A stretch of DNA of 64,000 nt from an uncultured Candidatus Rokubacteria bacterium. Lineage in GTDB: Bacteria; Methylomirabilota; Methylomirabilia; Rokubacteriales; CSP1-6. Within the stretch, counting starts at the first letter, position 1, and every line of letters starts with the position of its first letter. The DNA lies in contig CAVYTA010000006.1 of assembly GCA_963771355.1 (NCBI GenBank), positions 672,001 to 736,000 on the forward strand, in the 5' to 3' direction. The position numbers and the translations under genes are program-made. Below the pieces are notes generated by a model. The model saw only the letters and a list, made by a program, of their open reading frames with translations, did no database searches and was not told the DNA's origin. Of the stretch, positions 7,747 through 26,301 are shown piece by piece.

Positions 7747-7768
7747 TCTGCAAAAACAGAATTGCGGA
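7747..7768. repeat. 22-bp palindrome, copy 2 of 3
   Basis: TCTGCAAAAACAGAATTGCGGA. Confidence 0.85.
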
Positions 7769-7788
7769 GGGGATGCGACGTGACGCCG

Positions 7789-8030: not shown

Positions 8031-8270
8031 CGTGGTCCTGCAAAAGCACGCGGAGCTGGTTCGGGACATGACCGCGGCCGCGCGCTAGTGCCCTCGTGCC
8101 CCGGCCGACCGCGCGGCAGGAGATCCGGGCCTGCATCGCGTGGGTGCGGCGATTCGGCGCGCCCGCGGTCATGGGCCTGAGCCCGGAAGCGTTTGAGGCG
8201 ATGGTGCCGCACATCCTGCGCGGGGCCGTGATGGAAGATCGTGAACGGGAGCGAAAACGAAGGGAGCGAA

Positions 8271-8887: not shown

Positions 8888-8940
8888 CGGTGACGCACCA
8901 TGATTAGGCCACACAACGCGCGCAGCCGGAGGACCATGTG

Positions 8941-9159
8941 ATGGCCGATGAGATGACGCCTGCAACGACGGACGCGGACACGCTGAAGGGACATTACCTC
9001 ACGGCGCTCCGCGGCGGAGCCAGCCTCGCCGAGCTCGAGCGGCGGGAGTTTGTGGCGACCATCGCCCAGGCGGGGGCGCCGATGCTGCGGCGCTCCTCGG
9101 CCGAGCGCAACAGCATCCGCCAGCGGATCGCGCGGCGGTTCTACACGAAGGGGGCCTAG
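8941..9159 (+). CDS. Small hypothetical protein (MADEMTP...)
   Basis: GGAGG RBS; upstream GCAGCCGGAGGA..GTGATGGCCGA context conserved with the ORF at 20026. Confidence 0.55.
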   Translation: MADEMTPATTDADTLKGHYLTALRGGASLAELERREFVATIAQAGAPMLRRSSAERNSIRQRIARRFYTKGA

Positions 9160-9314
9160 CCGTGATTGTGCCCGACGAGCTCGACCATCCCGCCGCTGGC
9201 CATTTCCTGCCCTCCCAGCCCGCCGAAGGCCAAGAGTAGGGGTCTTACCCTGTCTGCCGGGGAAACTCCGCCTGTAGCGCGCCCGGACGGCGTACGTGCG
9301 CCCGCTGAGGGGGC

Positions 9315-9503
9315 GTGCTAGCCTCCCGGCTATGCCCCGTCTGCAAGAAGGTGCCGATCCACGCCGGCCAGGAGGTGTGCTCCGGCCGGTGCCGGGCCGG
9401 TCGGAGCCGGCAGCGGCAGGCCGAGGCTCAGCGGGAGCGAGACGCGGAGATCCGGGCGCTGCTCGAGGCGGCACTGAAGAAGCTGCAGGAGGGCGTGCCA
9501 TGA
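9315..9503 (+). CDS. Small CxxC...CSxxC zinc-finger/coiled-coil protein
   Basis: CPVCKKVPI...VCSGRCRA...EIRALLEAALKKL; close homolog at 21249, truncated copy near 6135. Confidence 0.7.
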   Translation: MLASRLCPVCKKVPIHAGQEVCSGRCRAGRSRQRQAEAQRERDAEIRALLEAALKKLQEGVP

Positions 9504-9542
9504 ATCGGCGAGTGGCTCCTGTGGAAAGGTAAGGAGAACCCG

Positions 9543-11010
9543 ATGCGTCGGGGTGCAAAGCCTGCAAAAGCGAAAGGTGAAAGCAAGCGTCCGGTCGCCC
9601 GCAAGTCAGGGAAGGGGGAAGGCTCGAGGGTGGGCGACCTCCAGAAGCGCCTGGCGGAGGCGCTGAAGCGTGAGGCAGAGGCGCTAGAGCAGCAGACGGC
9701 GACGAGCGAGATTCTGCGCGTCATCTCGAGTTCGCCGACGGACGTCCAGCCCGTGTTCGAACGATTCTCGAGCGGCGGCCGCGCTCTGCGAAGCGCAGCC
9801 GAGGACGCCATCTCGGCTCTACGAGGGCAAAGAGCGTTTCGACTCGGCGCGGGTTATAGGTCCGCGACCGGACCAGCTGCAATGGCTCCAGCAAGGGCTG
9901 CCTCGGTTTGGAGGCCGTGTGCTTCCGCGAGGCGGGCCCCTGGCGGAGTTGGCCAGGTTCTGGACGTCCGGGACACCGAGAACTAATCGCCGAGGGGGAA
10001 CCCGTCTATCCGGACCGCGATCACGAAGGGATGCGGACGCTCTCGCGGTGCCGATGGTCCACGATGGGCGTCTCGTTGGCTCGATCGCAGTCTACCGCCG
10101 CGAGACCCAGCCGTTCACCGACCGCCAGACCGCGCTCTCCAGACCTTCGCCGACCAGGCGTTGATCGCCATCGAGAACGTGCGGCTGTTCAAGGAGCTCA
10201 AGGAGGAATCAGGCGCTCGACGAGGCCTTGCAGCGTCAGACCGCGACCGTCGAATCTTGCGTGTGATAAGCCAGGCGCAGACCGACGCTCAGCCGGTGTT
10301 CGAGACGATCGCGGAAAGCGCCATGCGGTGTTCGGGGCGTGGGGGGCGCGGACGGCGCGTCGGGGCTACGGTCTCGCCGGCGGGGGGCCCTCCCGGCCGC
10401 GGCAAGTCCATCTGGAGCGATGGCGGACGCCGTGTCGTCCAGATCCGGACAGCCTCTGGACGGAGCCGGCCATGCTCGGCGAGAGCAGACCAGCATGCGG
10501 AACGGATTCCAGCGGGGCAGCCACAATGGGCCGTGCGCGGTTGCTTGAGGATGGGAGCCATGCTGCGGCGCCTAGGCCTCGTCGGGTATCGGGTGTCGCG
10601 CGAGCCTGCAGTGACGCCCGCGAGGTAGAGCTCATCAAGACCTTCGCGGACCAGGCCGTGATCGCCATGGAGAACGTGCGGCTGTTCAAGGAGCTACAAG
10701 CAAGCAAGCGCGAACTCACCACGGCGCTGGACCATCAGACCGCCACCAGCGACATCCTGGGGGTCATCAGCCGCTCGCTGGCGGATGTGCAGCCCGTCTT
10801 CGAAGCAATCGCCGAGAACGCCGCACGGCTCGTGCAGGCGTGGTCGGTGACCGTGCTCCGCTGGGACGGAGAATTCATCCACCTCGCGGCCGAGCGGGGC
10901 GGCCCGCCAGGCTCGGGGCAACGTCTGCGCGACAAGTCGCCCTGGCTTCCGAACACGACGTCCGGCCCTGGACGGTGCATCGCGACCGGCACCGTCATTC
11001 ACGTGCCCGA
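9543..11010 (+). pseudogene. Multi-GAF sensor protein fragments (deleted/frameshifted, no kinase domain seen)
   Basis: EALEQQTATSEILRVISSSPTDVQPVF, TFADQAVIAMENVRLFKEL and QTATSDILGVISRS repeats typical of GAF sensor kinases. Confidence 0.8.
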
Positions 11011-11015
11011 AGGGG

Positions 11016-11882
11016 CGGCTCGCGCACCTCGACAGCGCCTTCCGAGGGCGACGGCTCGCGAGTCTCGGCCAAGCCGACGTGACCGCTTACGCGCTGCGCC
11101 GGCAAGGGCAGGGGGCCGCTAACGGGACGATCAATCGCGAGCTGGCCGTCTTGATTCGGATGTTGCGCCTCGCGTATGAATCCTCGAAGCTCCTCCGCCT
11201 GCCGACCATGCACAAGCTCAAGGAAGCCGGGCCGCGCCAAGGCTTCTTCGAGCGTGAGCAGTTCGAGGCGGTGCGTCGGCACCTGCGCCCGGATCTCCAG
11301 CTCGCCGCCACGATCTGCTACCAGCTCGGTTGGCGGGTCCGGTCGGAGGTGCTCGCGCTGGAGCGCCGACAGATCGACCTTGAGGCGGGGACGCTTCGGC
11401 TCGAGCCCGGCACCACCAAGAACGACGAGGGGCGCTTCTGCTACGTGACCCCGGAGCTCCGCGCGATGCTGGCCGCCCAGGTCGAGCGCGTGCGGGCGCT
11501 CGAGCGGAAGACCGGCCGTATCATCGCGGCACTCTTCCCGCACCTTCAGGGCGCGCGCGAGCGGAAGCCGGGGCACCGGGGGCGCGTGATCGGCGAGCCC
11601 ATGCGGAACTTCCGGAAGGCCTGGGCGACCGCCTGCAAGGCCGCCGGGGTCGCGGGGATGCTGCGGCACGACTTCCGGCGCACTGCGGTGCGGAACATGG
11701 TGAACGCCGGGGTCCCGGAGCGCGTGGCGATGAAGGTCACCGGGCACAAGACGCGGGCCGTGTTTGACCGCTACCACATCGTGAGCCCAGGGGACCTGCA
11801 GGACGTGGCGCGCCGGATGGCGGGCACAATTCCGGGCACAGTGACCCCCCTCGGGGTTGACGGCCGGTCGGTAAGTGTGTAG
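11016..11882 (+). pseudogene. Tyrosine integrase lacking its N-terminus
   Basis: GWR.RSEV, TTKND, HDFRRTAVRNM, TGHKT and FDRY catalytic motifs; homology to the 25114 integrase starts abruptly at RLAHLD (11016). Confidence 0.9.
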
Positions 11883-11893: not shown

Positions 11894-11935
11894 CGGACGA
11901 TTAGCTCAGTTGGCAGAGCACCGGCCTCACATGCC
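11894..11935 (+). repeat. att site: 42-bp direct repeat covering the 5' half of tRNA-Val
   Basis: CGGACGATTAGCTCAGTTGGCAGAGCACCGGCCTCACATGCC is identical to 26225-26266. Confidence 0.95.
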
Positions 11936-11951
11936 CACCGGGCACACAACG

Positions 11952-11990
11952 CCCCTCGCGGAATCGCAAGGTTCCCGAGGGGTTTTCTCT
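11952..11990 (+). terminator. Intrinsic terminator after the tRNA 5' fragment
   Basis: CCCCTCGCGGAATC-GCAA-GGTTCCCGAGGGG hairpin followed by TTTTCTCT. Confidence 0.65.
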
Positions 11991-12179
11991 ATCGCCTCCG
12001 GTGCTCGGGGGGCGGTGGGAGGGCAGTTTCCGCCGACGATGGGGACAGCAGGGGACAGTGATTCGCGAATAGGATTACCCTCGCGGGCTAGCCGCCGCGT
12101 CATGAACGGCGGTGAACGGGCGGACCTCGCCGCCCTGCCCGCGATTCCACCTCGAGGCGCTCTATCGAGGGATGAGCAT

Positions 12180-12791
12180 ATGCCAGATTCCCGGCGCCTG
12201 CCGCGGCTGTCGGATCTCACTGCCTCCTCCGGGGATCTCATCGCGCAGCTCGAAATGGAGGCGGACCTCCCTGGCTCAACCTGGAAGCGCCTCTACCTCG
12301 TGGCGCTAAAGCGCATGGCGACCATGAAGGCATCGCGTCAGCTCGGCCATTTGTGTGCGGCAGAGACCTACAGCCTCGCGTTTCATCGGGGCGCCGAGCC
12401 CGAGCACCAGCGCTGGTGCAACGAGCGACTCACGGCTATTGAGGCGCGCACGATCCGCCCGCAGACGCTCAAGACCCAAACGGGAGTCGCGGACCCCGAG
12501 TATCTGTTCCTGTGTTTCCAGCACGTGAGAAACCTTCTCGAGCAGGGCGCCGACACACCGGCTCTTCAGCGCGCCTGGAAGCGCTGCGGTGGTGGAGGCA
12601 AGGTTCGGGACGGTTTCGTGGAGATCGTACGCCAGGAACAGCCGATTCCCGGGGCCCTCACGTTTATTGCCAAGGTGTTCGGCTATCGGGATGAGGAAAC
12701 CGTGAGTGTCATCCTTCGCCACGCAGGGTTCGCGCTCGACCAACACCATATGTCAATGGAATCCCCACCAAAATCTCCCGCAGAGTCGTAA
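12180..12791 (+). CDS. Hypothetical protein, first gene of element
   Basis: Uninterrupted ~200-aa ORF with lower-GC codon use; no family recognised. Confidence 0.55.
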   Translation: MPDSRRLPRLSDLTASSGDLIAQLEMEADLPGSTWKRLYLVALKRMATMKASRQLGHLCAAETYSLAFHRGAEPEHQRWCNERLTAIEARTIRPQTLKTQTGVADPEYLFLCFQHVRNLLEQGADTPALQRAWKRCGGGGKVRDGFVEIVRQEQPIPGALTFIAKVFGYRDEETVSVILRHAGFALDQHHMSMESPPKSPAES

Positions 12792-12910
12792 CCCCGCGAG
12801 TCCACACGCGAACCGCCAGAGTGCTGCGCGGCGCGCGTGATTCCTGACAGCGCTCCGACCGTAGTTCATTCTGGGAGCGCGATGAGACTCGAACCTCCAG
12901 CGGCCTCCGG

Positions 12911-13090
12911 TTGTTGACGTTTATCGACGTCGCCCGTGCTCTCGGCTGCCACCGGCGCACGGTCAAGCGCCTGGTTGAGGACGGACTACTCCCCGCGGTC
13001 CGCCTGCATCAGACCTTGCGTGTCGCGGAGCGTGACCTGATCGAGTTCCTTGACCGGCGTCAGAGACCGGCGCCAGAAGACGCAGCGTAG
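12911..13090 (+). CDS. Excisionase-like HTH (HTH_17/MerR-type) protein, absent from ORF track
   Basis: Manual translation LLTFIDVARALGCHRRTVKRLVEDGLLPAVRLHQTLRVAERDLIEFL fits the Xis-family pattern; true start may be ATG 12882 with a frameshift. Confidence 0.85.
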   Translation: MLTFIDVARALGCHRRTVKRLVEDGLLPAVRLHQTLRVAERDLIEFLDRRQRPAPEDAA

Positions 13091-13251
13091 TGACCTCTAC
13101 CGGCGGCGGTCGGGTCCGGGACACCGCGGACGGACGCCAAGCTATCGCGGAGCAGATCGCCCGCCTTCGAGAGTGGTGCCAGGAAACGGAGACGCCGTGG
13201 CGGCCGCCCACCTCCGAGCCGGAGCCGGCGCTCGAGGCCGATCGGGCGTGA
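13090..13251 (+). CDS. 53-aa hypothetical protein
   Basis: Translationally coupled on both sides (TAGTG and GTGA overlaps). Confidence 0.45.
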   Translation: MTSTGGGRVRDTADGRQAIAEQIARLREWCQETETPWRPPTSEPEPALEADRA

Positions 13252-15098
13252 GCGACTTCGATCCGCTCGCGGTCGGGGAAGCCGCCGGGCTGCTCGCGCG
13301 GCACGGCAGCGTCATCGAGGTGCGGCTCCTCAACACCGCGAAGGGCACTGTCAGCGGCTACTTCGGCGCCCTCGAGCCGCTGGTGGCCGCGCTCCAGCCC
13401 TGGGACGGCCAGGCGTCAGTCTACGTAGTGATGAACGAGCCCGACGGGCGGCTGCTGGCGCGGAGCCGGAATCGGCTGACCGTGCACGCCAAGGCCACCA
13501 CCACCGACGCCGACATCGTGCGGCGGGTGTGGTTCCTCGTGGACATCGACTCGGTGCGCCCGAAGGGCATCGCGGCGACCGACGAAGAGGTGGCGGCCGC
13601 GCTGGCATGCCGGGATGATGTCGTGGCGTGGCTCTGCGAGCAGGGGTGGCCCGATCCCGTCCTCGTGATGTCCGGCAACGGGGGCCACGCGCTCTACGCG
13701 ATTGACGAGCCCAACGACGAGGCCACGACCCGACTGCTCGAGCGGGGACTCAAGGCGTTGGCTGCGCGCTTCAGCAACCGCACGGTGACGGTGGATACCT
13801 CCGTCTTCAACGCCGCGCGCCTCGTGAAGTTGCCGGGGACGGTGGCCGTCAAGGGCGACGCGACGCCGGAGCGCCCCCACCGGCGGGCGCGATTGGAGAA
13901 GGTCCCGCATCCGTGTGGCGTGGTCACGCGCGAGCAGCTGACCAGGCTGGCGGCCCAGGCCCCGGCCGTGCTCGCGCCCTCGCCGGCCCTCGCCGCGGAC
14001 GAGCTGGACGTGGCCGAAGAGTTCAAGCGGCGCGGCTGGTACCGGAAGGCCCTGACCGGAGGCAAGCACGCGGTGACATGCCCGTGGGACTCCGACCACT
14101 CGGGCGCGTCAGGGCTGACGGAGGCCGTGCTCTTCGATCCCCGACCACCCAGCAGCGCGTGGGGCTTCAAGTGCCAGCACATGCACTGCGTCGGCCGGAC
14201 CATTCGGGACGTGTATGCGCTGCTGCGGGGCCAGACGCCCCGCGGAGCCGTCACGGTGGTGTCGCGCGCGCTCAAGGACATTCTCCACGAGGTGCGCGCT
14301 GACCTGAAGGCCGGGCCGAAGCACGTCGTCTCCACCCCGTTCGACGCGCTCAACTTCCTCCTGCACGGCGGCTTTCACCCCGGCGAACTGTGCATCCTCG
14401 GCGCGCGGCCCGGCCGGGGGAAAAGTGCCTTTGATCTCCTCTTCGCGGTGCATGCCGCCCAGGCCGGCCACCCGGTCACGGTGGTGTCGCGGGAGATGAG
14501 CGAGCGGGCGCTCGGTCGGCGCCTCTATGCGCAGCAGGGCGGGGTCCATGCCGGGAAGCTTCGCGCGGGCACCCTGGACCGCGCCGACTGGGCGCGCATC
14601 GACACGGCGCACGCCGTCCTGGACCCGCTGCCCATCCACATGACCGACCAGGCCCTCACCATCGAGCAGATCCAGAGTCTGGCGCGGCGGGACGCGACCG
14701 AGCACGGGCTCGGGGTGCTCTGCGTGGACTATCTCCAGCTCGTGGGGGCCGACCGACGGATGCCCGACAAGCGACTAGCCGTGGAGTACGTGAGCCAGTG
14801 CTTGAAAGGGCTGGCCGTCGATCTGAAGTGCGTGGTGCTCGCGCTGTCGAGCCTCAACCGCCCAATGAAGAGCACCAGCTCCCCGCGGCCAGGGCTGCAC
14901 GATCTCCGCGAGTCCGGCGCCCTCGAGCACGACGCCGATGTGGCCATGTTCCTCCACCGCGTGGCGTCCACTCCGCCCGACCCGGCCGCAGGGATCGAGA
15001 TGGAACTGCTCCTCGAGAAGGGGCGGGAGACGGCGACGGGGCTCGTGCCGCTGACCTTCTGGGGCTCGACCTTGACCTTCACCCCGCGGAGTCATTGA
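13248..15098 (+). CDS. Primase (AEP/RepB-like) - Zn-binding - DnaB-like SF4 helicase fusion
   Basis: N-terminal FLVDID, SGNGGH and ARLVKLPGT; CPW..H...CQHMHC; C-terminal GARPGRGKS, VDYLQL, LSSLNR and DLRESGALEHDAD. Confidence 0.9.
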   Translation: MSDFDPLAVGEAAGLLARHGSVIEVRLLNTAKGTVSGYFGALEPLVAALQPWDGQASVYVVMNEPDGRLLARSRNRLTVHAKATTTDADIVRRVWFLVDIDSVRPKGIAATDEEVAAALACRDDVVAWLCEQGWPDPVLVMSGNGGHALYAIDEPNDEATTRLLERGLKALAARFSNRTVTVDTSVFNAARLVKLPGTVAVKGDATPERPHRRARLEKVPHPCGVVTREQLTRLAAQAPAVLAPSPALAADELDVAEEFKRRGWYRKALTGGKHAVTCPWDSDHSGASGLTEAVLFDPRPPSSAWGFKCQHMHCVGRTIRDVYALLRGQTPRGAVTVVSRALKDILHEVRADLKAGPKHVVSTPFDALNFLLHGGFHPGELCILGARPGRGKSAFDLLFAVHAAQAGHPVTVVSREMSERALGRRLYAQQGGVHAGKLRAGTLDRADWARIDTAHAVLDPLPIHMTDQALTIEQIQSLARRDATEHGLGVLCVDYLQLVGADRRMPDKRLAVEYVSQCLKGLAVDLKCVVLALSSLNRPMKSTSSPRPGLHDLRESGALEHDADVAMFLHRVASTPPDPAAGIEMELLLEKGRETATGLVPLTFWGSTLTFTPRSH

Positions 15099-15673
15099 TG
15101 GGCTGGGCTCGCGTGGATGACGGCGCGTACACGCATCCGAAGTTCCTCGGGCTCGACCCCGCGGCGGTCGGGCTGTGGGCGCTGGCGTTGAGCTACTGCA
15201 ATCACCATCTGACCGACGGCTTCGTGCCGCGTACGCAGGTGCCCCGGCTCGTGGCCTGTCCCCCCACGCTGGCGTTCAAGCTCGCTCACGAGTTGCAGAA
15301 GCACGGGCTCTGGGAGGAGCGCGGCAAGGACGGCTTCCAAGTGCACGACTACCTCGACTGGAACCCCTCGGCCACCGAGATCCGGCGCGACCGCGCGCTG
15401 CACCGGGAACGCCAGGCCCGCTATCGCAGCCGGCAGACGGGACGCTTTGGTGACGCATCACGTAGCGCGTCAGCGGAAGCGTCAGGTGATCCGTCAGTGA
15501 CGGCAGCAGTGACGTCCACCCACGCCACGCCACTCCACTACCCCCCTATAGTCCCCCCTCCGTCAGGGGTAGCCACCCCACCCCACCGCGGCGACGACGA
15601 CTCCAGGGTTCCGGCGTGGCTGCCGCCGCCCGGGATCGATTTACCACGACGGCTGCCCCAAGCCCGGGTATGA
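15098..15673 (+). CDS. Phage replication-initiator-like protein
   Basis: WARVDDGAYTHPK...AVGLW...SYC....TDGFVP...GLWE...GFQVHDYLDWN pattern recalled from phage replication modules; TGATG overlap. Confidence 0.7.
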   Translation: MGWARVDDGAYTHPKFLGLDPAAVGLWALALSYCNHHLTDGFVPRTQVPRLVACPPTLAFKLAHELQKHGLWEERGKDGFQVHDYLDWNPSATEIRRDRALHRERQARYRSRQTGRFGDASRSASAEASGDPSVTAAVTSTHATPLHYPPIVPPPSGVATPPHRGDDDSRVPAWLPPPGIDLPRRLPQARV

Positions 15674-15736
15674 GCATCTCTTCCCCACAGATCGCCAAGC
15701 CCGGTGCCCGAAACATCGGATTGAGGGCTCTGAGTG

Positions 15737-16200
15737 ATGGGTGAATCCAGCGCGCCCCTTTCGCCGGTGCAGCCCTCGGTGCAGCACCGGCCAGCACCGT
15801 CCGGGTGCATCGTCGGCCAGGAGCGGGGTCAGCAGTGCTTTCCGGTCGTTCCGGGCTCGCCCTACTGCGACAACCACGACCCCGAGCGGCGCAGAGTCGC
15901 CGCCGGGAGATCACCCGGCTGGCCGCCCGAGCGAGCCACGCCCGCCGCAGAGACCCCGAGCTCGAGGCCTGGGCCAGCACCCTCGACTTCAGCAACGAGG
16001 AGAAGCGTCAGCAGGCGCTCCGTGAGACGGCCATGCACGTGGCGAAGGACAGGCTGACGCCCGCTAAGGGCCATGCCATCGCCGCCCTGGCTCGAGCGGC
16101 CACCAGCAAGCCGGCGAAGACCGCGCCAGCCCCGCGCCTGCTCCATGTCGTCACGGCGGCATCGAGCCCCCGGCCGCCTCGTGAGCGCCCCGCTCCCGCT
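15737..16200 (+). CDS. Hypothetical Cys/His-motif protein (frameshifted); possible small terminase by position
   Basis: C..GQERGQQC...SPYCDNHDP followed by a helical region in another frame. Confidence 0.4.
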
Positions 16201-16380
16201 GGCCGCTGCGCAGGCGCGACTCGGCAAGCCGGGCCGGCCCGCGCAGAAGCGCTCCCGACCGTTCGGGCTCAGACGGGGACAAACATGGGGCCAGTGCGCC
16301 CTGCGTCCGCGACCGAATCCCGCCGCCACGCGGACTTGCGGAGCGGCGAGCACTGGCTGTGACGCCGACGGCTGCGCCCG

Positions 16381-16631
16381 CCGCGGCTCCTCGATCCGGG
16401 CGCTGCCTCGGCCGCCTAGTCATGGGCCTGCTTCTCTCCGACCTGGACCGTGCGCGACCTGATCGCGGCCGGGACATTCCAGCGGGTGACGATGCCGGCG
16501 CCCGTGACGCGAAGCGCCGGGGCGGGGCGATCCGCAAGGTGCTGCTGGACCGCCTGCAGCTCGACGCCGCGGTGACCGCCTGGAAGGGCACCCGCGGACC
16601 GGCCAGGACAGAGAAGCAGGGGCCCCGATGA
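16381..16631 (+). CDS. Second excisionase-like HTH protein (frameshifted, start uncertain)
   Basis: Pieces PRLLDPGAAS / SPTWTVRDLIAAGTFQRVTMP / IRKVLLDRLQLDAAVTAWK. Confidence 0.55.
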
Positions 16632-18141
16632 CCACGACGGTAGAGCAGGTCCATCTCCCGCACGCCCTCCGCTTCTACGACCACCAGCGCGAGGCCATTC
16701 AGGCCTTCCACGAGGGCGCCCGGCGGGCGATCTGGCGGTGGCATCGGCAAGGCGGCAAGGGAGCCGGGCGCGCTCGGCTGGGTCGGCATGGCGGCCTTCG
16801 AGCGGCCGGGCACCTACCTGGTGGCGAGCCCGACGAAGGAGCTGTCCCGTGAGAACTACTGGGACGCCCGCGATCCCGACAGCGGGGAGTCCTATCGGGA
16901 TCTGGTGTTCCCGCGGGAGATCGTGCTCGACACGAACGAGAACGAGCTGAGCATGGAGATGCTCACCGCGAAGCGCGGGGCAGACCTCGCGCATCGTCTT
17001 CCGCAGCGCGGATGATCCCGACCGGCTCCGCGGCCCCGCCTATGCCGGCGTGGTGCTCGACGAGTTTGCGACGATGCCGGGCCGCGAGCCGCTGGACATC
17101 GTGCGCATCCCCCTCGAGCGCGCGGGCGGGTGGCTGCTCATCACGTCCACGCCGAAGGGCCTCAACCACTTCCACGAGGTGTGGAAGAACGCCGAGGGCG
17201 CAGGCGGCTGGTATCTCTCGACCAAGACCATCGAGGACACGCAGCGCCACGACGGCACGCCGATCATCCCGCTGGCCGCGGTGGAGCAGGAGCGCCGCGA
17301 AGGGCAGAGCGAGGAGTGGATCGCGCAGGAATACTACGTCGCCTTCACCGCGGCGCTCATCGGGGCGTACTTCGCCGACGTGCTGACGGCGGCCGAGCGC
17401 GAGGGGCGCATCACCGACCTGGCCCCGCGGCCGACGCTCAAGGTGTGGACCGGCTGGGACCTGGGCATCAGCGACCTGACGGTGGTGGTCTACCTGCAGC
17501 CCCGCCACGATCCAGGCGAGCGGGTGCACGTGATCGGCTGCGATGCCTGGGAAGGCGCGGCGCTGCCGGAGATCATCGCCGGGATGCAGGCGCACGGCTA
17601 CACCTTCGGCACGCACCTGGTGCCGCACGATGCGGCGAATCGGGAGAAGGGGAGCGGCAAGACCTACGTAGACGTGGCCCGCGAGCTCGGGGTGCGGCTC
17701 AAGGTGGTGCCGCGGGCGCCGAATCTGCTCGAGGGCATCGGCGCGGTGCGGGCGCTCTTCCCGCGGCTGGTGTTCGACCGGCGGCGGGCGGCGAAGCTGC
17801 TCGAGGCGCTGGGCGCGTACACGAAGACCTGGGACCCGCGGGGCAAGGTCTTCCGGCCGAGCCCGGCGCACACGTGGGCGTCTCACTATGCCGACGCGCT
17901 GCGCACGTTCGCGGTGGGGTATCGGGATCGGGACGAGTGGGCCGAACCGCGCCGGAGCTACCAAGCCAAGATGGCCGCATCCCCCCTGCACCAGATGACG
18001 CGCCCGGGCTCGTCGCGGCCGACGCGGCGGCGGCATCTCGACCCAGTGGAGGCCGACGAGTTCGAGGGAGGGACCAACATGGCGACGATTCCGAGCATCG
18101 ATGGCCGCGCAGCCGCTACGCAAGATGGGCGAGCGGCGTGA
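16628..18141 (+). CDS. Phage terminase large subunit (frameshifted)
   Basis: HQ...WHRQGGK Walker A, DDPDRLRG..YAGVVLDEFA Walker B, ITSTPKGLNHF, QEYY..F, WDLGISD nuclease and SHYADALR motifs. Confidence 0.9.
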
Positions 18142-18236
18142 GGAGACCCGTCGCCCGTCAAGGTGAGCGCGGAGGAGACGCCCCACGGGTCGTTGATCGG
18201 GATCGAGTGCGCACCGGAACCTAACGAGGAGACATC

Positions 18237-19230
18237 ATGCCCTACTTCAACGAACAAACCGGCGAGCCGACCGATGGGCCCGAATGGGACAGGCGTGACC
18301 GAGCCCGCCCCCTTCGACGGCGCACCGGAGCCGCCGGCGCAGACACAGCCCACGGATGCAGGGCCGACGATCACCAGCGACCGCATGATCAGGAGACGGT
18401 GGCGATCGCGTCGCTCACGCCGGAGGCGGCGCTGACCGAATACGACCGGATGACGGTCGCGTGGAGAAGAACCGCACTCGGCGACGACCGGACGCCGCGG
18501 AGCAGGCGTTCCTCGGCGACGCGACGCGCTATCATGCGCGGGAATGGGTTGCCGCTCGACGACAACCGCGTGCTCGGCGAGGTGTTTGCGGGCGGGCAGA
18601 TTGGGCCCCTCGATGCGGACGCGCTCGTTCAGCGCCGCGCCGCGGTGCCGGACGGCTATGCGTTTGACGAGGCGGCGACTGGTGATCGCGGCGACGGAGG
18701 CACGCACGATGGGCGCGCAGCCGTCCTCATCATGGAAATCACCGCCGCCCTGGCCGAGACCCTGGGAACAGGCCGAGCGGCGCGGCGGGGTGGGGTGGAG
18801 CGATGGGGAGGCGCGAGCGGAGCTGACGCGGCGGCATGGGCGCGACGGCATGGCCCGGCTCGTCGGCAATGCGCAGTACGCGTACCACGTGCTGTTAGAG
18901 AGCGAGCAGCCCCTCCTTGTGCAGCGCGTGCGGGGGGCTCGGGGAGGAATGGGGCGGGGATCCCGGCGTGATTACGCTCTTCGGCACCCTCATCTACGAC
19001 GCGCTGGGCGAGGGGCCGATCACGCCGGCGAAGGAGACAATCCTCCTCCGGCGCGGCGAGCGGCAGCCACGGCCGAGGACGCGGCGCAGGCGGCGGCCGC
19101 GAAACGCCAGCGGGAGGGAGACGGACCGAAGGCGACGAGGTCCCGCGCGGAGATGGTGACGACCACGGCGCAGGCGCATCAGCGGTGGCGGCGGAGGCGA
19201 GCCGTGAGCTCGGCGTCTTTATGACATCAC
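18237..19230 (+). CDS. Hypothetical protein, possibly capsid-scaffold-like (heavily frameshifted)
   Basis: GAGGAG RBS; Pro/acidic N-terminus, VPDGYAFD and EEWGGDPGVITLFG segments reminiscent of podovirus scaffolds. Confidence 0.3.
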
Positions 19231-19325
19231 CACCAACGAGAGGAGTAACGATCATAGCCGACGATCTGAGTGGCCTGAAGCAGATGGTGGACGGCCTGGT
19301 CCGAAACATGCCCGGGTGGAGCGTG

Positions 19326-19989
19326 ATGGCCACCACCAAGACGACGACCGCGGCAGCGAGCCTGAGCGCGCTAGAGAACGCGCTATGCCAGGCGGCCGAG
19401 CGCGAGCGCCAGAGCCCGTGCGGTCTATCTCGAGGTGCTGGACGCGCGCGTCGCCAGGGACTGCGGCGCTCACCGGCGCGGCCGGCATCCGCGCGGTGCT
19501 CGCGGGCGAGCGGCGCGGCATCGCGGACATCGAGGCGACGGTGCGGGCCGCGATCATGGCCGGTGCTCGAGCAAGTACCCGAAGCCGAAGGCGACGACGC
19601 CGCGGATCCATCGCCGCCGAGGTGGACGCGCTCCGGCAAGACGGCGCTGGGCGCACTCAACACGCTCGACACGAACCCCGCGCGCTGGACCAGCCTGGAT
19701 TCAGAAAATCACGAGCCTCGCCCGACGGCGCGGGCAGCACCGGTATCTGCGCCGAGGCGGCATTGGGCTACGCCCTCCGGCCGCTGCTTGGGCGGGGCGC
19801 GCGCGCTGGCCGCGGACCCCCAAGGCGTTGACCGAGCAGGCGCGCTTCATTGACGCCCTCGTGGCCGACGACGCGGCGCCGGGGCGGCCCGTGGCGGTGG
19901 CGCGGGGGAGCGGGCCGCTGCCCGCGGCGACGCTGGAGGCGACCCAAGGCGCGCGGCGCATACCGCGCCGAGACGACGGTGCGCCATGA
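19326..19989 (+). CDS. Hypothetical element protein, homolog of 8271-8887 (frameshifted)
   Basis: KTALGALNTLDTNP, WIQKITSL, RPLLGR and ALTEQARFIDALV segments align with the upstream copy. Confidence 0.65.
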
Positions 19990-20025
19990 GGACTAGGCAC
20001 ACGGCCCGCAGCCGGAGGAGCACGT

Positions 20026-20830
20026 GATGGCCGACGAATCCACGACCGAGGATCTCAAGGCGGAGTTTGACGCGGCCCGGCTCGCCGGGGACCACGCGCG
20101 GTTAGAGGCCATCGGCCCGCAGCTCTACCCCGAGCCCGCGGTCGTGGAACGCATCGCCCCCGGCTCCCCGCGACGCCGCCAGGCGTAGCGCAGGGCCCGC
20201 TGAGCAGCCCGCGCGCCGTGATTGCGGCGATCAATGCCGAGCTCGAAAGGGGCCAGGGCCACCAAACCGAGCAACGCCGCCAAGAATTGATCGCGAGCGC
20301 GACCAAGCGTACCGGGATGCCTTCGAAGAGAGCGAGCGGGCCGCCAGGCCGCGGCGCGCGCGGAGCCGGCCGCGCCGCCGTGACCCGGGTACGCGGTCGC
20401 CGGTGGCCCGCGCCGATGGAAGGCCACACGTGGAGTCCCGGACTCAACCCCATGGTGGCGCACCTGGTGGGTCGGGCCTCCACGTGGACACGCTCAAGCA
20501 CTTTGCCGGCGCGCGGGGCCCCGAGGATCCGCCCGACGACGTGCCCCGCGAGACGGTGGTCGCCGCGCGGTTCGCGATGGACGCGTATTTCCCTGACCGC
20601 GCCGAGCGGGAGCTGATGAACGACTGGCTGGACAAGACGGGCAACGCGAACAATCGGGCGCTCATCGAATGGGCCGCGGAGCTCGGGCGGCCGCTGCGCC
20701 AGGAGCTCGAGGCAGGCGCACGCGGATCGCTACCGGCCTCGGCACGACTCAACACGGGCTCGCCGCGAATACGCGGACACGGCGGCGGCCCTCGCTGCGC
20801 GCTATCAGCACATCTACGGAGGCGATTGAC
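20026..20830 (+). CDS. Hypothetical protein, possibly scaffold-like (frameshifted)
   Basis: GGAGGAG RBS, MADESTTEDL start; DWLDKTGNANNRALIEWAAELG segment; ends ARYQHIYGGD. Confidence 0.35.
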
Positions 20831-20832
20831 CC

Positions 20833-21120
20833 GTGCCCAGCCCCGCGGAGCAGCACCAAGCCGACGTCGAGCACGAGTGCCGCGATCCTCGAGGCGGCCG
20901 GCTGCGACGTGGTGCCGCTGCTCGGGCCCATCGCCCAGGCGTGGAACCTCCTCGGCATCGGCCCGCATGGGCTCCTGCTCGTGCACGTAGTCCGCGGGGC
21001 CTGGCCGGAGATGCTCGGGTTCAGAGCCTCGGCATCCCGCCGCGGTGGCCGGCCAGCACCGGCCGGCTCGATCCACCGATACATCGACGGGGCACCTGCC
21101 CGAGGTGCGCCTCTTGTGAA
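20833..21120 (+). CDS. Possible degenerate PD-(D/E)xK/resolvase-like small protein (frameshifted)
   Basis: EHEC.AILEAAGCDVV...NLLGIGPHGLLLVHV pattern; acidic catalytic residues not conserved. Confidence 0.25.
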
Positions 21121-21248
21121 GCGCCCGCCGGCCCGTTTGCTGCCCTCCCAGCCGTCCGAAGGCCCCAATAGGGGTTTCAACCATGACTTCGGAGGAAACT
21201 CGGCCCGTAGCGACCCCGGACGGCGTACGTGCGCCCGCTTGAGGGTAC

Positions 21249-21431
21249 GTGCTCCCCCGGCTATGCCCCGTGTGCCGGAAGGTGCCGATCCAGCCGGCCA
21301 GGAAGCGGGACTGCTCCGGCCGGTGTCGGGCCCTCAGCCGGCAGCGGAAGGCAGAGCCCGGCGGGATGAGAAGCGAAGAGATCCGGGCGCTGCTCGAGGC
21401 GGCACTCAAGAAGCTGAGGGAGGACGCCTGA
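21249..21431 (+). CDS. Small zinc-finger/coiled-coil protein, copy in main element
   Basis: CPVCRKVPI...CSGRCRA...EIRALLEAALKKL. Confidence 0.7.
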   Translation: MLPRLCPVCRKVPIQPARKRDCSGRCRALSRQRKAEPGGMRSEEIRALLEAALKKLREDA

Positions 21432-21522
21432 TGGGGCACGAACCTTCCTCGCGACGGTCTCAGCGGCGCCAGTTGCTCCCTGGCGCGGCTGGTTCGGGGT
21501 CATTGGCTGGAGGTGTTGAATT

Positions 21523-22200
21523 ATGAGCATCCTCGGGTGGCTCCTCACCATCCTTTTCGCGTTGTGCGCACTATTCATAATCGTAATGCCCTTCTGGGAA
21601 AGAAAGGGGAGGAAAGAGCAGCCCGAGAGGAGGAAAGAGCAGCCCGAGTCGCATTTGAAGAGGAGCGAAGAGCTCGGCGAATCGCGCTGGAAGAGAATCA
21701 AAGAGCATGGCAAGAAAACCAAAGAGCACGGCAAGTCTTACTCGGCGAATCGCTCACACGCCACCTAGCTACCCTGCGCGAAAGCATCGGCAGCTCATTC
21801 TTACGGACGATTACGGCTATAAACGCGATGCTGGATGGGGGACAAAGAGGTTGAGTACTTTTTGGGAATCGCAGCCAGGGAAGCCGACGTTGATAATCTC
21901 GATCTCATTGACCGCCTCTGTCGGGTAATGTTAAAGCGCCCTACGAACTGGCTGAGCGAAACGGAACTAGCGATTGAAGCCGACGCTGAAAAACGTCCAG
22001 TGGGAATGACCCTCAGATCTTCGTGAGGAGCATTGCGCGGATCTCTCTTCGCCCTCCGCGCAGGCTGGAGTGCTCGCCTCACTCAGGGCCTCGGGCGACC
22101 AAGGTGTCGATGTCATCGCCGAGAAAGGCGGCCACAAGGTCGCCCTTCAGTGCAAACAGTACAGTCAGCCGGTGGGCAACTACGCTGTTCAGGAAGCTTG
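21523..22200 (+). pseudogene. Membrane-anchored Mrr-like (type IV) restriction endonuclease, frameshifted and C-truncated
   Basis: N-terminal TM, coiled coil, DDYG segment, then ASGDQGVDVIAEKGGHKVALQCKQYSQPVGNYAVQE (D...QxK). Confidence 0.75.
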
Positions 22201-22212
22201 TCGATGCCGGAG

Positions 22213-22419
22213 CCTTATGTCCTATGGACCGAACCTTGCTGATTTTTTCGGCGCGCCGCGACGTACGTGGACAGGATTCTCAAGGGGGCCAAGCCCGGGG
22301 ACCTGCCCATCGAGCAGCCGACGACGTTCGAACTGGTGATCAACCTCAAGACCGCGAAGACCCTCGGCCTCACGATCCCGCCGTCGCTTCTACTACGGGC
22401 GGATCAGGTGATCGAGTGA
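22213..22419 (+). pseudogene. C-terminal fragment of ABC transporter substrate-binding protein
   Basis: LMSYGPNL...[55 protein letters not shown]. Confidence 0.85.
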
Positions 22420-22777
22420 CCGGGGAACATCCGGGCGCAGAGCGACGCGCTGACGACGCTCGACGGGCCGCGCTGATGTTCGCAGCGCTTGGCTTCGCCG
22501 CGCTCCCACGCATCCCTGCCGACATGGCGCCGTGTTTCGGGGACTCCACCGCTGGCTCGACGCCTGGCGGGGGATCGGCGACCTCGTGACGGGCATGAAC
22601 CGCCAAGCCTACGATTTGGAGCTGACCCAATACCCGGATGGCTGGCGGTGCACGTTCTTCGTGACCGGGCGGGAACACTCGCTCACGCCCATCACCGGCT
22701 CGGCCTGGGAGAAGACGCCGTGGCTCGCCGTCCAGCGGGCCGCCGCGCGGGCGCTCGCCGGAGGAGTAATGGCATGA
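22416..22777 (+). CDS. Small hypothetical protein (frameshifted)
   Basis: [43 protein letters not shown]...[16 protein letters not shown]; coupled to neighbours. Confidence 0.6.
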
Positions 22778-22971
22778 GGATCTTCGGCATGATCTTGGTC
22801 ACGGTGGGCGCGGCGATCATCGTCGTCTTCGGCGTGCTGACAGCGGGGACGCTGCCCGGCGTCGATCCGGTCAAGGAGTTCATTGTGGCGCTGGTGTTCG
22901 GCGGGCCCATCGCTGCCCTGGGGCTCATCCTCGTCGCGATCCGGAAGCCAGAGAAACGGGGGCCGAAGTAG
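22774..22971 (+). CDS. Two-TM small membrane protein
   Basis: [22 protein letters not shown]...FIVALVFGGPIAALGLILVAIRK; ATGA overlap. Confidence 0.6.
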   Translation: MRIFGMILVTVGAAIIVVFGVLTAGTLPGVDPVKEFIVALVFGGPIAALGLILVAIRKPEKRGPK

Positions 22972-23192
22972 ATGACACGCCGGCTGCTGGTGACGGTGAT
23001 GGTCGCGGCGGGCGGGCTCTCGGGCTGCTCAACGTCCAAGACGGCCGATACATCGACCCGAAGACGGGTCATCAATACGTCTGCTATCGCCAGTCCGCGT
23101 TCGGGGTGATCCCGTCCGTCGCGGCGGGCAACTCGTTTGCGGACTGCAAGACCTTGTTCGAGGGCCGCGGCTTTCTACGCCGCGATCCGTAG
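22972..23192 (+). CDS. Small lipoprotein (frameshifted)
   Basis: MTRRLLVTVMVAAGGLSGC lipobox; continues YIDPKTG..VC...FADCKTLFEGRGF in another frame. Confidence 0.45.
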
Positions 23193-23260
23193 GTGTGGCT
23201 CATCATCCTCTTCATCGTCGGGCCGGTCTAGTGGTTCTGGTCGGGGCCGCGGAAGTGATC

Positions 23261-23290
23261 TTGACAACGCTGCTAACCGGGAGTTAGCAT
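23261..23290 (+). promoter_or_regulatory. Sigma70 promoter with overlapping palindromic operator
   Basis: TTGACA-N18-TAGCAT containing TGCTAAC-CGGGA-GTTAGCA. Confidence 0.75.
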
Positions 23291-23313
23291 TGTCCCCGAA
23301 GAGGCTGGGACGC

Positions 23314-23493
23314 ATGTTGAAGACGCTACGGGAAGAGAAAGGCTTAAGTCAGCGTGAGCTCGCGGGCAGGGCGAAGGTCACTGGAGCCTACGTCGCCATG
23401 CTTGAGGCTCGCAAAAAGAAGAATCCCTCCCTCGCTGTCCTTCAGCGTCTCGCCAAGGCCCTCGGCGTGCCGGTGACGGAGCTGCTGGGATGA
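23314..23493 (+). CDS. XRE-family HTH transcriptional regulator
   Basis: LKTLREEKGLSQRELAGRAKVTGAYVAMLE..KKNPSLAVLQRLAKALGVPVTELL; alternative TTG start at 23290. Confidence 0.92.
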   Translation: MLKTLREEKGLSQRELAGRAKVTGAYVAMLEARKKKNPSLAVLQRLAKALGVPVTELLG

Positions 23494-23723
23494 ATCGCGC
23501 CATCTGTCTCAGCCTCGCCGCCCTTCTCACCACGAGCAGTGCGGCAGGTTGCGCCGTCGACGTCGCCGCGACCTGCAAGGCCTCCGGCGGCACGTACACG
23601 GAGGCGGGAACGTGCACGCAATATGGTCCGAGCCAGCAGGCGGCGAGGGATAGATGCTCAGCTAGCGGGGGCGTGTATTTCGTGGACAGCAACGCTTGCA
23701 TACTCGGCAGCGGGGGACCGTGA
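23490..23723 (+). CDS. Cys-rich small lipoprotein with duplicated C.ASGG.Y motif
   Basis: Signal peptide ending AAGC; CKASGGTY...C and CSASGGVY...C. Confidence 0.65.
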   Translation: MNRAICLSLAALLTTSSAAGCAVDVAATCKASGGTYTEAGTCTQYGPSQQAARDRCSASGGVYFVDSNACILGSGGP

Positions 23724-23826
23724 TGACCTTTGACGGAGCGACCTAAGACCAGAGCGCCCCCGGCCGCGTTGGCGCGCGACCGAGGGCTGGTAGCCGATCA
23801 ACCTCACCCTGGGAAGGAGAGCATCG

Positions 23827-24039
23827 ATGGCCACGGCTACGGTAGCACGCGCCCGCCGGAGATGGCAGGGTGACGTGATCCCCGACGCCCGCGAGCTTCA
23901 CCGCGTCATCACCGCCAGCGTGCGCGAGCTGCTGGAGACTGCCCGGCTCGAGGCGCAGGCCGGCCCGGTGGACGAGGACCAGATCGAGCGCCTCATCTTC
24001 CGCGCGCCGCGCCCATCGTCCAAGCGTCGCCGTCGTTGA
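23827..24039 (+). CDS. Small hypothetical protein
   Basis: GAAGGAG RBS, 70-aa ORF. Confidence 0.5.
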   Translation: MATATVARARRRWQGDVIPDARELHRVITASVRELLETARLEAQAGPVDEDQIERLIFRAPRPSSKRRRR

Positions 24040-24239
24040 CCGAGGCGCAGCGCGGCGAGCTGCTCCCGCATATCGTCCGCTTAATGTTGACGGCGTTCCT
24101 CGAGGCGCAAGCGCGATGACAACCGCCGCCGGCGGCGTCCCGACCACGCGCTACGTCGGTCGAAGAAGCCGCCACAAGCGCCGGGGCTGAACACCTCCCG
24201 ACGCTTGTGGATGTGAACGGACTCGAAGGGACGTCGCGA

Positions 24240-24534
24240 CTAGAGCGAGCCTCCTCCGCCACTCCCACCAACTCCCCCACCGCCCCCGCTACCGCCGCCG
24301 GACGTAGATGCCGCCGCCGGGCCCGCCAGACCCCGAGCCGCCCCCGCCGCCGGCTCCACCGCCTCCACTCCCGCTACCGCCGCCGGACCCAGAGCCGCCG
24401 CCGGCGCCCCCTCCTGCGCCACCGCTTCCGGACCCCGAGCCGCCGCCGCTTCCCGCTGCGTAACTTACGCCAACGGGCACGAGCACGAGAAGCGCGACTA
24501 CCAGCAGCACAAACAGCCGATAGACCACACGCAT
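24240..24534 (-). CDS. Secreted Gly/Ser-rich low-complexity peptide (one probable frameshift)
   Basis: Signal peptide MRVVYRLFVLLVVALLVLVPVGVSYA then about 70 residues of GGGS repeats. Confidence 0.6.
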
Positions 24535-24731
24535 GGGCAACTCCATTCCGCGGGGGATACCCCGCTGCTCAGTACACTCCGATTACTTTCAAGCAAGCTG
24601 AATGCCTGAACAGAAACGCCTGCGGTGGTGAGAGCTTTCGGAGTGGATGGAATCACCCTGGGCCGCCCTTGTCAAAACTCCCGACACCATATACATAGCC
24701 TGCCGAGGGGATACGAGAAGGATCGAGGCCG

Positions 24732-24753
24732 TCTGCAAATACAGCGTTGCAGA
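24732..24753. repeat. 22-bp palindrome, copy 3 of 3 (perfect arms)
   Basis: TCTGCAA-ATACAGCG-TTGCAGA. Confidence 0.88.
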
Positions 24754-24773
24754 AGGAAACGCGCGTGACGCCA

Positions 24774-25045
24774 CTACTTCTCGCGGGCTCGCTTCAACCC
24801 CCGCTCAATCGCGGGCAGGGCGTCCGGGGCATGGACGAGCGCGAGGGCGCGCAAGCCGAGGGCGTCTGTCACGAAGCCGGTGAAGAGATAGGGGCCCACC
24901 TTGCCTTTGCGTGCGCTCGTCTCGGGCTCGACGACCCGGAGCAGACGGGCCGCTACGCGCGAACTATCTTTGCGTGTTTCAAGAGCACGAGGTATTGCGC
25001 CTCGCTCAGCTCGATCTGGACGGGCAGGGTCTTGGCGGTCGCCAC
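24774..25045 (-). CDS. Conserved ~90-aa element protein divergent from integrase (one frameshift)
   Basis: VATAKTLPVQIELSEAQYLVLLKHA / DSSRVAARLLRVVEPETSARKGKVGPYLFTGFVTDALGLRALALVHAPDALPAIERGLKRAREK. Confidence 0.7.
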
Positions 25046-25113
25046 AGTGCCGCCGATGACACCACGCCGCTTTTGGTTCGTCAATATGATCCGACAACCG
25101 GGGAGGGGAACTA

Positions 25114-26235
25114 ATGGGACACCTTATCAGCGCGGGCCGGTGTGGTGGATTCAGTTTTATCAGGATGGGCAGCGGGTGCGGATGACCTCGGAGTCGCGGA
25201 CAAGGACGTGGCCAAGCGGCTGCTCAAGGAGCACGAGGCGCGCGTGACGCTCAAGGAGCCCGTCGTGCGTCCGCTCGGCCCGCGTCACCTATGACGAGCT
25301 GCGAACGGATCTCGTGGAGCACTACCAGGCGACCGGGGCCCGCGACCTCGAGGAGGCCGGCTGGCGGCTCGAGCACCTGGACCGGGCCTTCCGCGGGGCC
25401 CGCGCGAACCTCATCACCGCGGGCGGCGATCACCCGGTACATCGTCCAGCGCCAGGGCGAGCGGGCGGCCAACGGGACGGTTAACCGCGAGGTGGCGGTC
25501 CTGCTCCGGATGCTGCGCCTGGGCCTATGAGCGCGGCAAGGTGGCCCGCCTGCCCATCGTCCACAAGCTGAAGGAAGCGGCCCCGCGCGCCGGCTTCTTC
25601 GAGGCCGAGCATTCGCGGCGGTGCGGAAGCATCTGCCGGCCGACCTCCAGGTGGCCGTGACCGTCGCCTACACGTTCGGCTGGCGGATGCAGAGCGAAGT
25701 GCTGGCGCTCGAGACGCGGCAGCTCGACCTCGCGGCCGGGACCATCCGGCTCGACCCGGGCAGCACCAAGAACGACGAGGGGCGGGTGGTGTACCTCACG
25801 CCGGAGCTCACCGCGCTCCTGGCGGCCCATGTGGAGCGCGTGGTGGCCCTCGAGCCGAGACTTGGCGCAGGTGGTGCCGTGCCTCTTCCCGCACTTCGCC
25901 AAGCCGCACCGGGGGAGCGCAGCGCCAGGACTTCCGCAAGGCGTGGACGAGCGCGTGTAAGGCCGCCGGCTACACCGGGATGCTCCGGCATGACTTCCGG
26001 CGGACGGCGGTGCGGAACATGGTCAACCGGAGCATGCCGGAGCGCGGTGGCCATGAAGATCACCGGCCACAAGACGCGGGCCGTGTTCGACCGCTACCAC
26101 ATCGTGAGCCCGGCGGACCTGCGGGAGCGCGCGCCCGGAAGCTGGCCGGGCACGGTTTCAGCCACAATCGCGGCCACAGTGGGGCAGGTGACCCCCATCG
26201 CAAGTGAAGTGGAATTCGGTGCGGCGGACGATTAG
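25114..26235 (+). CDS. Tyrosine recombinase/integrase, full length but with several frameshifts (3' end uncertain)
   Basis: GGGAGGGG RBS; arm-binding-type N-terminus (QRGPVWWIQFYQDGQRVR); GWRMQSEV, STKNDEGR, HDFRRTAVRNM and TGHKTRAVFDRY. Confidence 0.9.
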
Positions 26236-26301
26236 CTCAGTTGGCAGAGCACCGGCCTCACATGCCGGGGGTCACTGGTTCAAGTCCAGTATCGTCCACC
26301 A
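26226..26301 (+). tRNA. tRNA-Val(CAC)
   Basis: 76 nt; acceptor stem GGACGAT/ATCGTCC, D arm TAGCTCAGTTGGCAGAGC, anticodon arm CCGGC-CTCACAT-GCCGG, GGTTCAAGTCC T arm, encoded CCA. Confidence 0.97.

Follow-up and report, generated by a model that had tools for sequence, protein, structure and literature searches.

A 64,000-nucleotide window of contig CAVYTA010000006.1 (assembly GCA_963771355.1, positions 672,001 to 736,000), from an uncultured Candidatus Rokubacteria bacterium, holds an island integrated at a tRNA-Val(CAC) gene that carries an integrase, a primase-helicase, a large terminase (TerL) and a relative of a podophage head-assembly gene, with no recognisable portal, capsid or tail gene. 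We consider it probable, with real room for doubt, that this island is a satellite resembling the phage-inducible chromosomal islands (PICIs), which would remodel the procapsids of BPP-1/HTVC010P-like podophages and fill them with its own packaging motor. Sister islands of 13-14 kb in related bacteria probably spread likewise, by hijacking podophage heads.

The limits of the island are set by an exact 42-bp repeat at 11894-11935 and 26225-26266, which has no other copy in the genome and consists of the one base preceding tRNA-Val(CAC) followed by tRNA nucleotides 1-41. Since the longest exact repeat in 20 codon-shuffled windows reached 16-19 nt, the att repeats and the att-bounded unit of about 14.4 kb proposed in an earlier note on this DNA were confirmed, with a length of 14,331 bp from att to att. 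The island uses the 5′ half of the tRNA gene, which is rebuilt directly behind the integrase so that its upstream region is now island-derived, unlike most sister islands, whose target is the 3′ end of a tRNA gene. The features of the island are as follows (ORF, open reading frame; HTH, helix-turn-helix).

11894..11935, + strand: attL, the 42-bp exact repeat from the tRNA-Val(CAC) 5′ half
12102..12791, + strand: 229-aa ORF at the left end, in the position of the regulator of sister islands, with a coding signal and no match in PHROG, Pfam or NCBIfam
12848..13090, + strand: Xis/AlpA-like HTH_17 protein (PF12728, E 1.1e-11; phrog_66, E 9.6e-9)
13248..15098, + strand: intact 616-aa fusion of a primase and a DnaB-type helicase (phrog_2478, E 1.7e-7; DnaB_C, E 5e-56)
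15098..15673, + strand: replication-initiator-like ORF (phrog_2447, E 2.9e-37)
15738..16270, + strand: ORF F, frameshifted, with a Cys/His motif, a candidate small terminase (TerS) by position
16359..16631, + strand: weak second Xis-like small ORF (tblastn E 0.003 to a small HTH ORF of a sister island, in two frames), with no PHROG or Pfam match
16628..18141, + strand: TerL, with two +1 shifts in the 5′ third (phrog_2, E 1.8e-24; Terminase_6N)
18237..19224, + strand: ORF A, broken in 8-9 places, about 330 aa long
19254..19989, + strand: ORF B, about 245 aa, broken and helical, with an intact paralogue at 8270-8887 (50% over 169 aa)
20027..20829, + strand: ORF C, broken, a relative of the podophage portal-to-capsid gene (phrog_3742/phrog_458)
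20833..21120, + strand: ORF D, about 95 aa, perhaps resolvase-like, with no PHROG match and another copy in a remnant on contig C5
21243..21431, + strand: small Zn-ribbon ORF, common to sister islands and genome remnants
21520..23190, + strand: variable cargo with membrane/lipoprotein-like ORFs, an Mrr_cat fragment and an ABC_sub_bind tail (Pfam), GC being low at 21-22 kb
23110..23493, + strand: XRE/HTH_3 regulator, common to sisters (PF01381, E 1e-14)
~25115..26200, + strand: tyrosine integrase with 9 frameshifts and no in-frame stop (phrog_1, PF00589; 59% over 328 aa to the intact integrase of sister island G115)
26225..26301, + strand: attR (26225-26266) and the rebuilt tRNA-Val(CAC) gene (26226-26301)

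Searches of 75 ORF frames against PHROG and Pfam profiles recovered the integrase (although frameshifted), the primase-DnaB fusion, the replication-initiator-like ORF and the clear TerL of the earlier note; of its two Xis-like HTH proteins, the one at 12848-13090 stood and the one at 16359-16631 proved weak. No portal, capsid or tail profile was matched among these frames, and the broken ORFs, read through their breaks, matched none of the local capsid and portal profiles from related podophages. The unassigned ORFs F, A, B, C and D, for which the earlier note had proposed a check for portal and capsid folds, reached at most 0.6% in hhalign comparisons of sequence profiles, so the claim that these genes are not recognisable in the unit held as well.

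What the first reading of the island had overlooked is the podophage scaffold-like gene, ORF C, which points to the class of helper. Its intact homologue, P0076, is 83% identical to the window frame. A profile made from 35 relatives of the matching protein of sister island G113 found P0076 at E 1.2e-8 and the window frame at E 0.003, and matched, at E 1e-20 to 1e-39, the phage gene flanked by portal and capsid; a combined profile gave an hhalign probability of 95.9% for P0076, and the ORF C read-through reached 88%, as against at most 0.9% in 20 shuffles. All 31 relatives scanned matched phrog_3742, and many matched phrog_458 too. The source phages of this family are 35-42-kb BPP-1/HTVC010P-like podophages, the records of which label the gene 'capsid assembly protein' or 'putative protease', and the order in the named 41-kb podophages is TerL, small ORFs, portal, 'putative protease' and major capsid. 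Position, annotation and predicted shape suggest that the ORF C family is a likely scaffold.

The predicted model of P0076 is all-alpha with a hairpin at each end (predicted local distance difference test score, pLDDT, 80.5). A fold search with this model returned nothing at E 0.001 in BFVD or PDB, and structure comparison yielded generic hairpins only (best Z 7.2); the ESM Atlas held no usable match for P0076 or the ORF B paralogue, and a PDB sequence search with the scaffold profile gave no match. The C-terminal hairpin motif is present as a single copy in 11/11 phage proteins, and an extra, N-terminal copy was found in 5/13 island proteins, 15/26 unplaced relatives and 0/11 phage proteins, while the first 65 profile positions of the phage scaffold were matched by no island-type protein. 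In a predicted complex, residues 1-50 of the G113 scaffold and a helper-type capsid protein scored 0.16, the mark being 0.32.

The TerL of the island also leads to these podophages. In the window copy both the ATPase and the nuclease motifs are present, and with its two +1 shifts allowed for it is 88% identical over 457 aa to the intact metagenomic protein P0001. A homologue search returned 75 proteins, the best 38 of which share 46-92% identity and come from contigs no longer than 19.7 kb, a length that is weak evidence as such contigs are short anyway. In thirty near-full-length TerLs of the clade, 43-81% identical, the motifs for Walker B, coupling and nuclease are retained (alignment A1). 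In the 49-row tree the window TerL falls inside a 17-row clade (Shimodaira-Hasegawa-like approximate likelihood ratio test, SH-aLRT, 100) that is sister to the TerLs of the G006 and G048 islands (SH-aLRT 94), and the enclosing group (SH-aLRT 97) contains six portal-bearing podophages, one of them from the same class; a wider tree was built with FastTree. The phylogeny called for in the earlier note thus nests the window TerL among BPP-1/HTVC010P-like podophages. A single origin of the island TerLs was rejected by the approximately unbiased (AU) test (p-AU 0.0014, for a group that was chosen with a first tree already in view), and the island TerLs are drawn from at least three lineages, the BcepC6B-like TerL of G116 being the third type.

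The nearest named phages by TerL are 41-kb podophages at 34-36% identity, and the best segment on a viral contig reached 42% among full-length-type matches. No parent prophage carrying this TerL was found in viral contigs or named genomes; no full prophage of 35-45 kb from which the unit might derive by deletion, as the earlier note had considered, turned up among them, the best phage TerL being 36% identical. A metagenome scan added at least five clade-like TerL loci (L023-L026, L029), and in L023 and L024, where TerL is 57-59% identical to that of the window, the next genes are a 186-aa scaffold-like ORF and a 218-aa ORF, not a portal.

To place the island in a family, we considered the genomes of the phylum. 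The scaffold profile matched in 13/251 of them and the portal profile phrog_332 in 2/251, neither among the 13. Leaving aside G030, one of the 13, the loci examined comprise 11 stretches from 10 genomes, and 0/11 matched the local portal or capsid profiles. The search of relatives for units of 12-16 kb, suggested by the earlier note, yielded five att-bounded islands of 12.8-14.1 kb at tRNA ends, with portal or capsid found in none.

G113 island, 12,797 bp: intact, with Xis, primase, TerS-like ORF, Xis, TerL, 203-aa ORF, scaffold, small head-region genes, Zn ribbon, HTH and two integrases, and no unassigned ORF longer than 224 aa
G116 island, 12,892 bp: DUF5763 ORF, BcepC6B-like TerL, scaffold
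G076 island, 12,995 bp: scaffold and an internal-virion gene; TerL not found
G115 island, 13,882 bp: scaffold and transposase-like inserts; TerL not found
G006 island, 14,053 bp: 45-bp repeat, TerS and TerL; primase and scaffold not found

A further island, in G107, resembles that of G113 with two internal-virion genes in addition, one of its ends lying off the contig. The tRNA islands of G006 and G048 (L014:17072-18891 and L016:17902-19701) have a DUF5681-like TerS with TerL and no primase or scaffold match. ORF F of the window shows a weak likeness to the ORF preceding TerL in G116 (phmmer E 0.04-0.05, hhalign 4.9%), the DUF5763 assignment being that ORF's own profile match; ORF F is a candidate small terminase from its position only.

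TerL was found in three of the five att-bounded sisters (G113, G116 and G006) and not in two (G076 and G115). Because the G116 TerL escaped PHROG, Pfam, NCBIfam and hhalign and was detected solely by tblastn to phages, the lack of TerL in other sisters means that it was not found. Two att-bounded sisters nevertheless carry the scaffold without a TerL match, so that TerL does not define the group; across these genomes the scaffold-like gene is the commoner feature of the family, and TerL is a repeatedly captured extra. The earlier note had proposed a new satellite class with its own motor: TerL without portal or capsid does recur in G113, G116 and G006, but it is not what delimits the group. 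We give an even chance to a new class of satellites of BPP-1/HTVC010P-like podophages in which the scaffold has been re-engineered, its phage N-terminal domain being swapped for extra terminal hairpins, TerL has been captured at least three times, and, in members with TerL, stolen empty procapsids would be filled by the satellite's own motor.

The same distribution bears on a different role for TerL, in which the island would be a true scaffold-type satellite filled by the motor of the helper, with TerL in an accessory role, either disturbing the packaging of the helper or doing no more than cutting island concatemers. G076, G115 and several partial sisters, with a scaffold and no TerL match, fit such a role, as does the Walker A motif of the TerL clade, which is mostly GKG while the remaining motifs are conserved; the usual Walker A has GKT/S. 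TerS also suffices for known PICIs, as far as the account in PMC10085698 goes. An accessory role nonetheless appears decidedly unlikely to us, given that 30 sequences show conservation of the ATPase motifs and the nuclease motifs alike and that a full-length TerL has been captured from at least three lineages, always from helper-type phages and beside a TerS-like ORF.

Another possibility is that a capsid or portal gene, strongly diverged, is hidden in ORF A or in one of the other broken ORFs, and that the island forms heads of its own in the manner of PICIs that form capsids (cf-PICIs). ORF A has the length of a capsid protein, lies directly after TerL, is too broken to fold and matched only itself in a homologue search. 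Its hhalign values of at most 0.6% against podophage capsid and portal profiles (3.2% against the scaffold, with shuffles at or below 0.4) speak against this, as do the lack of space in the unit for a portal-sized ORF, the two genes that follow TerL in L023 and L024, and the intact G113 island without an unassigned ORF above 224 aa; we regard own heads as very improbable. A second scaffold motif read by eye in ORF A was not confirmed by profile comparison. The model of the ORF B paralogue is all-alpha and of low confidence (pLDDT 54.5), with no fold match, and the helical ORFs in this position in sister islands could not be united into one family. A family of helical-looking 340-415-aa ORFs lies directly upstream of the scaffold gene at L250:2278-3399, L256:5586-6605 and L259:10026-11273, with no library match.

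Most genes to the right of 15.7 kb are frameshifted in the window copy. In alignments, ORF C has 7 shifts against P0076, the integrase 9 against the intact G115 sister and ORF B 6 against its paralogue; together with TerL, all breaks in these alignments are shifts of 1-2 bp of both signs, with zero stop codons. A codon model placed 8 breaks in A, 6 in B, 3 in C, 8 in the integrase and 0 in the primase, while four host genes had 0-2. For shifts of both signs that come with no nonsense changes, consensus error would be a better fit than neutral decay, and the frameshifts are probably errors of the long-read consensus.

The many frameshifts can also be taken as a sign that the units are decayed or deleted podophage prophages, with kept ends and scattered head genes and no parasitic cycle. 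Several observations agree with this: the many right-arm remnants near other tRNA genes of the genome, the TerL fragments in G119, G114, L025 and L026, the G006 and G048 islands with TerS and TerL and no primase, head-gene subsets that differ among sisters, and the lack of any such island among viral contigs. Set against them, one gene order (Xis, primase, TerS-like, Xis, TerL, helical ORF/scaffold, Zn ribbon, HTH and integrase) is common to the intact sisters, and they never show a portal or capsid gene, the very genes that lie between TerL and scaffold in phages. The catalytic motifs retained by the 30 clade TerLs at 43-81% identity, an island scaffold that is rearranged relative to 11/11 phage copies, and the distance to the nearest named phage TerL (36%) likewise argue against decay, and we judge this explanation unlikely.

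A number of points weigh against the satellite that we favour. The element is known here from sequence alone, and the excess of breaks in A, B, C and the integrase over host genes is compatible with real decay too. TerL genes also decay, being broken near tRNA genes in G119 and G114 and truncated in L025 and L026, and several scaffold loci are partial or decayed. Sister sizes are less uniform than they appear, as G006 has no primase or scaffold match and the two insertions in G115, which we take to be transposase-like, inflate its size. The scaffold role of phrog_3742/458 comes from position and annotation, not structure; a profile of phage scaffolds only misses ORF C and P0076, the link running through sister proteins, and the hairpin motif profile misses both as well. 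ORF F has no library match, a small terminase was not recognised in the island, and the AU result carries the late naming of its group. Among viral contigs there was no member of the TerL clade and no scaffold of the island group, the sole find being a full phage, and the genome that carries the island contains neither a second TerL nor a portal or capsid of podophage types.

That genome is furthermore strewn with right-arm remnants (HTH_3, Zn ribbon, small conserved ORFs and integrase pieces), most of which sit next to tRNA genes and at the ends of contigs, without primase, TerL or scaffold. They lie at C5:997-1008 kb, C6:1-17 kb, C6:975-990 kb, C8:1-2.7 kb, C4:27 kb and C7:405-410, 687-718 and 778-780 kb. 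Within the window, the island is preceded by traces of older integrations:

6088..11882, + strand: what is left of related islands that occupied this site earlier, in blocks of 68-86% DNA identity

These contain the ORF B paralogue, the start of ORF C, the Zn ribbon and the 3′ part of the integrase, with no TerL, no primase and no further att copy; a broken stretch at 9543-11010 within them is presumably GAF-repeat sensor-like cargo. The earlier note had taken the gene order of these remnants as support for a real family. Lacking TerL, they are silent on the TerL argument, and the support comes instead from the relatives in other genomes.

Among the loci recovered in the searches, the primase neighbours in G048-C3, G143, G121, G105, G113-C336, G084 and G188 were dropped as other element types, and a 24-bp repeat in G207 was left out of the size list since it is not at a tRNA end and encloses host genes. 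The G121 locus (L222:845-8950), with a primase relative beside an HTH gene, is another small element type, in which a 439-aa ORF and a 960-aa ORF look to us like a terminase and a tape measure, respectively. The G188 contig (L228-L229) is phage-like, 40 kb long and binned with a genome of the same family; it has a weak phrog_332 portal match and a distant primase. The scaffold profile also led to L262 (4017-19353), a podophage contig of 41.66 kb that shares a small ORF (13199-13462) with the islands, 56-67% identical to G116 and 35% to G113. An L262-like podophage is thus a candidate for the type of helper used by these two islands, not extended to that of the window.

If the window island is the PICI-like satellite that we favour, infection by a helper would lead to its excision and replication. 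ORF C would then rival the scaffold of the helper in binding the capsid protein, in the way described for CpmB and Rcm of Staphylococcus aureus pathogenicity islands (SaPIs) in PMC12409344, and small heads would result. Such heads would fit about one third of a 41-kb genome, the 12.8-14.3 kb of the islands being 0.31-0.35 of 41 kb. This is close to the ratio of SaPI to helper genomes. The TerL of the island, perhaps with ORF F as its small subunit, would dock on the helper portal and fill the head, while portal, shell, tail and lysis would be provided by the helper.

Compared to known satellites, the island resembles PICIs and SaPIs with CpmB or Rcm, within what PMC10085698 and PMC12409344 describe, in its integrase, HTH regulator, primase-replicase and size of about 10-15 kb, and in a helical protein related to the helper scaffold with no portal or tail. 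It differs in carrying a large terminase with no small terminase recognised, in a scaffold relative of podophage origin with an extra terminal motif copy in several sisters, and in an integrase at the far end that is co-oriented with the rest of the genes. Under the SatelliteFinder model of PICIs, the island has the integrase and the primase-replicase, and tail, holin, portal and head-tail genes were not detected; for the regulator (AlpA, MerR or Stl), Pfam and PHROG rather than the model's own profiles gave HTH_17/phrog_66 and HTH_3, with MerR below the cut-off. For capsid morphogenesis, ORF C could at most be called an analogue, and Pfam and PHROG gave no match to a capsid profile of PICIs. 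The island is not classed as a PICI because the TerS and capsid markers are not clear-cut and TerL is extra.

In the satellite models, TerL is among the features by which cf-PICIs are told apart from PICIs, and a TerL of its own, with integrase, regulator, primase and satellite size, likens the island to cf-PICIs as outlined in PMC10085698. In contrast to these, sequence profiles detected no portal, major capsid, protease, head-tail adaptor or connector in the island; of the genes that the cf-PICI model expects, it has the large terminase, and there is no room for portal, major capsid, adaptor and connector. Its TerL is of the T4/BPP-1-like type, whereas that of cf-PICIs is lambda-like. Neither a psu-delta-sid operon nor an Ash or alpha match of P4-like satellites was found among the 75 frames with PHROG and Pfam. 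PLEs, a further type of satellite, are defined by capR, nixI, lidI and repA as markers and by hosts among the Vibrionaceae. Podophages of the BPP-1/BcepC6B/HTVC010P type (for example MW202742, 41.2 kb) are the source of TerL and the pre-capsid gene, and of the sisters' small head-region and internal-virion genes; the island, about one third their size, is without portal, capsid, adaptor, nozzle and tail genes. As a BPP-1/HTVC010P-like prophage it would need a phrog_332 portal and a capsid after TerL, of which there are none, and 35-42 kb rather than 14.3 kb.

EcCIMP1, whose helper is Kapi1, is likewise integrated, with an integrase, an AlpA-type regulator and a primase, and its DNA-transfer-like genes recall the internal-virion genes of sisters G076 and G107; the portion of PMC11773190 drawn on here gives it no recognisable genes for capsid morphogenesis or for a terminase, which sets it apart from the island. 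The pSSVx/SRCE satellites of archaeal spindle-shaped viruses, in the part of their description used here (bioRxiv 2025.02.15.638363), retain a virus-derived ATPase and/or capsid gene in an incomplete virion module; they differ in being plasmid-derived and archaeal, with non-tailed helpers and an ATPase of the AAA+ type, not a terminase. A search of the open-access literature, in main texts and not supplements, found no description of a capsid-less satellite with TerL and scaffold.

Together, TerL and a scaffold without portal or capsid place the island outside the PICI and cf-PICI models, under which it would pass for a defective prophage. An active island would represent a third way of stealing heads, between PICIs, which bring TerS only, and cf-PICIs, which bring the whole head, and would point to helpers in a podophage group that ranks among the most abundant. 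Active islands would also offer natural variants for the head-assembly role of the mis-annotated 'protease' gene of these podophages, and for how a terminase recognises a foreign portal.

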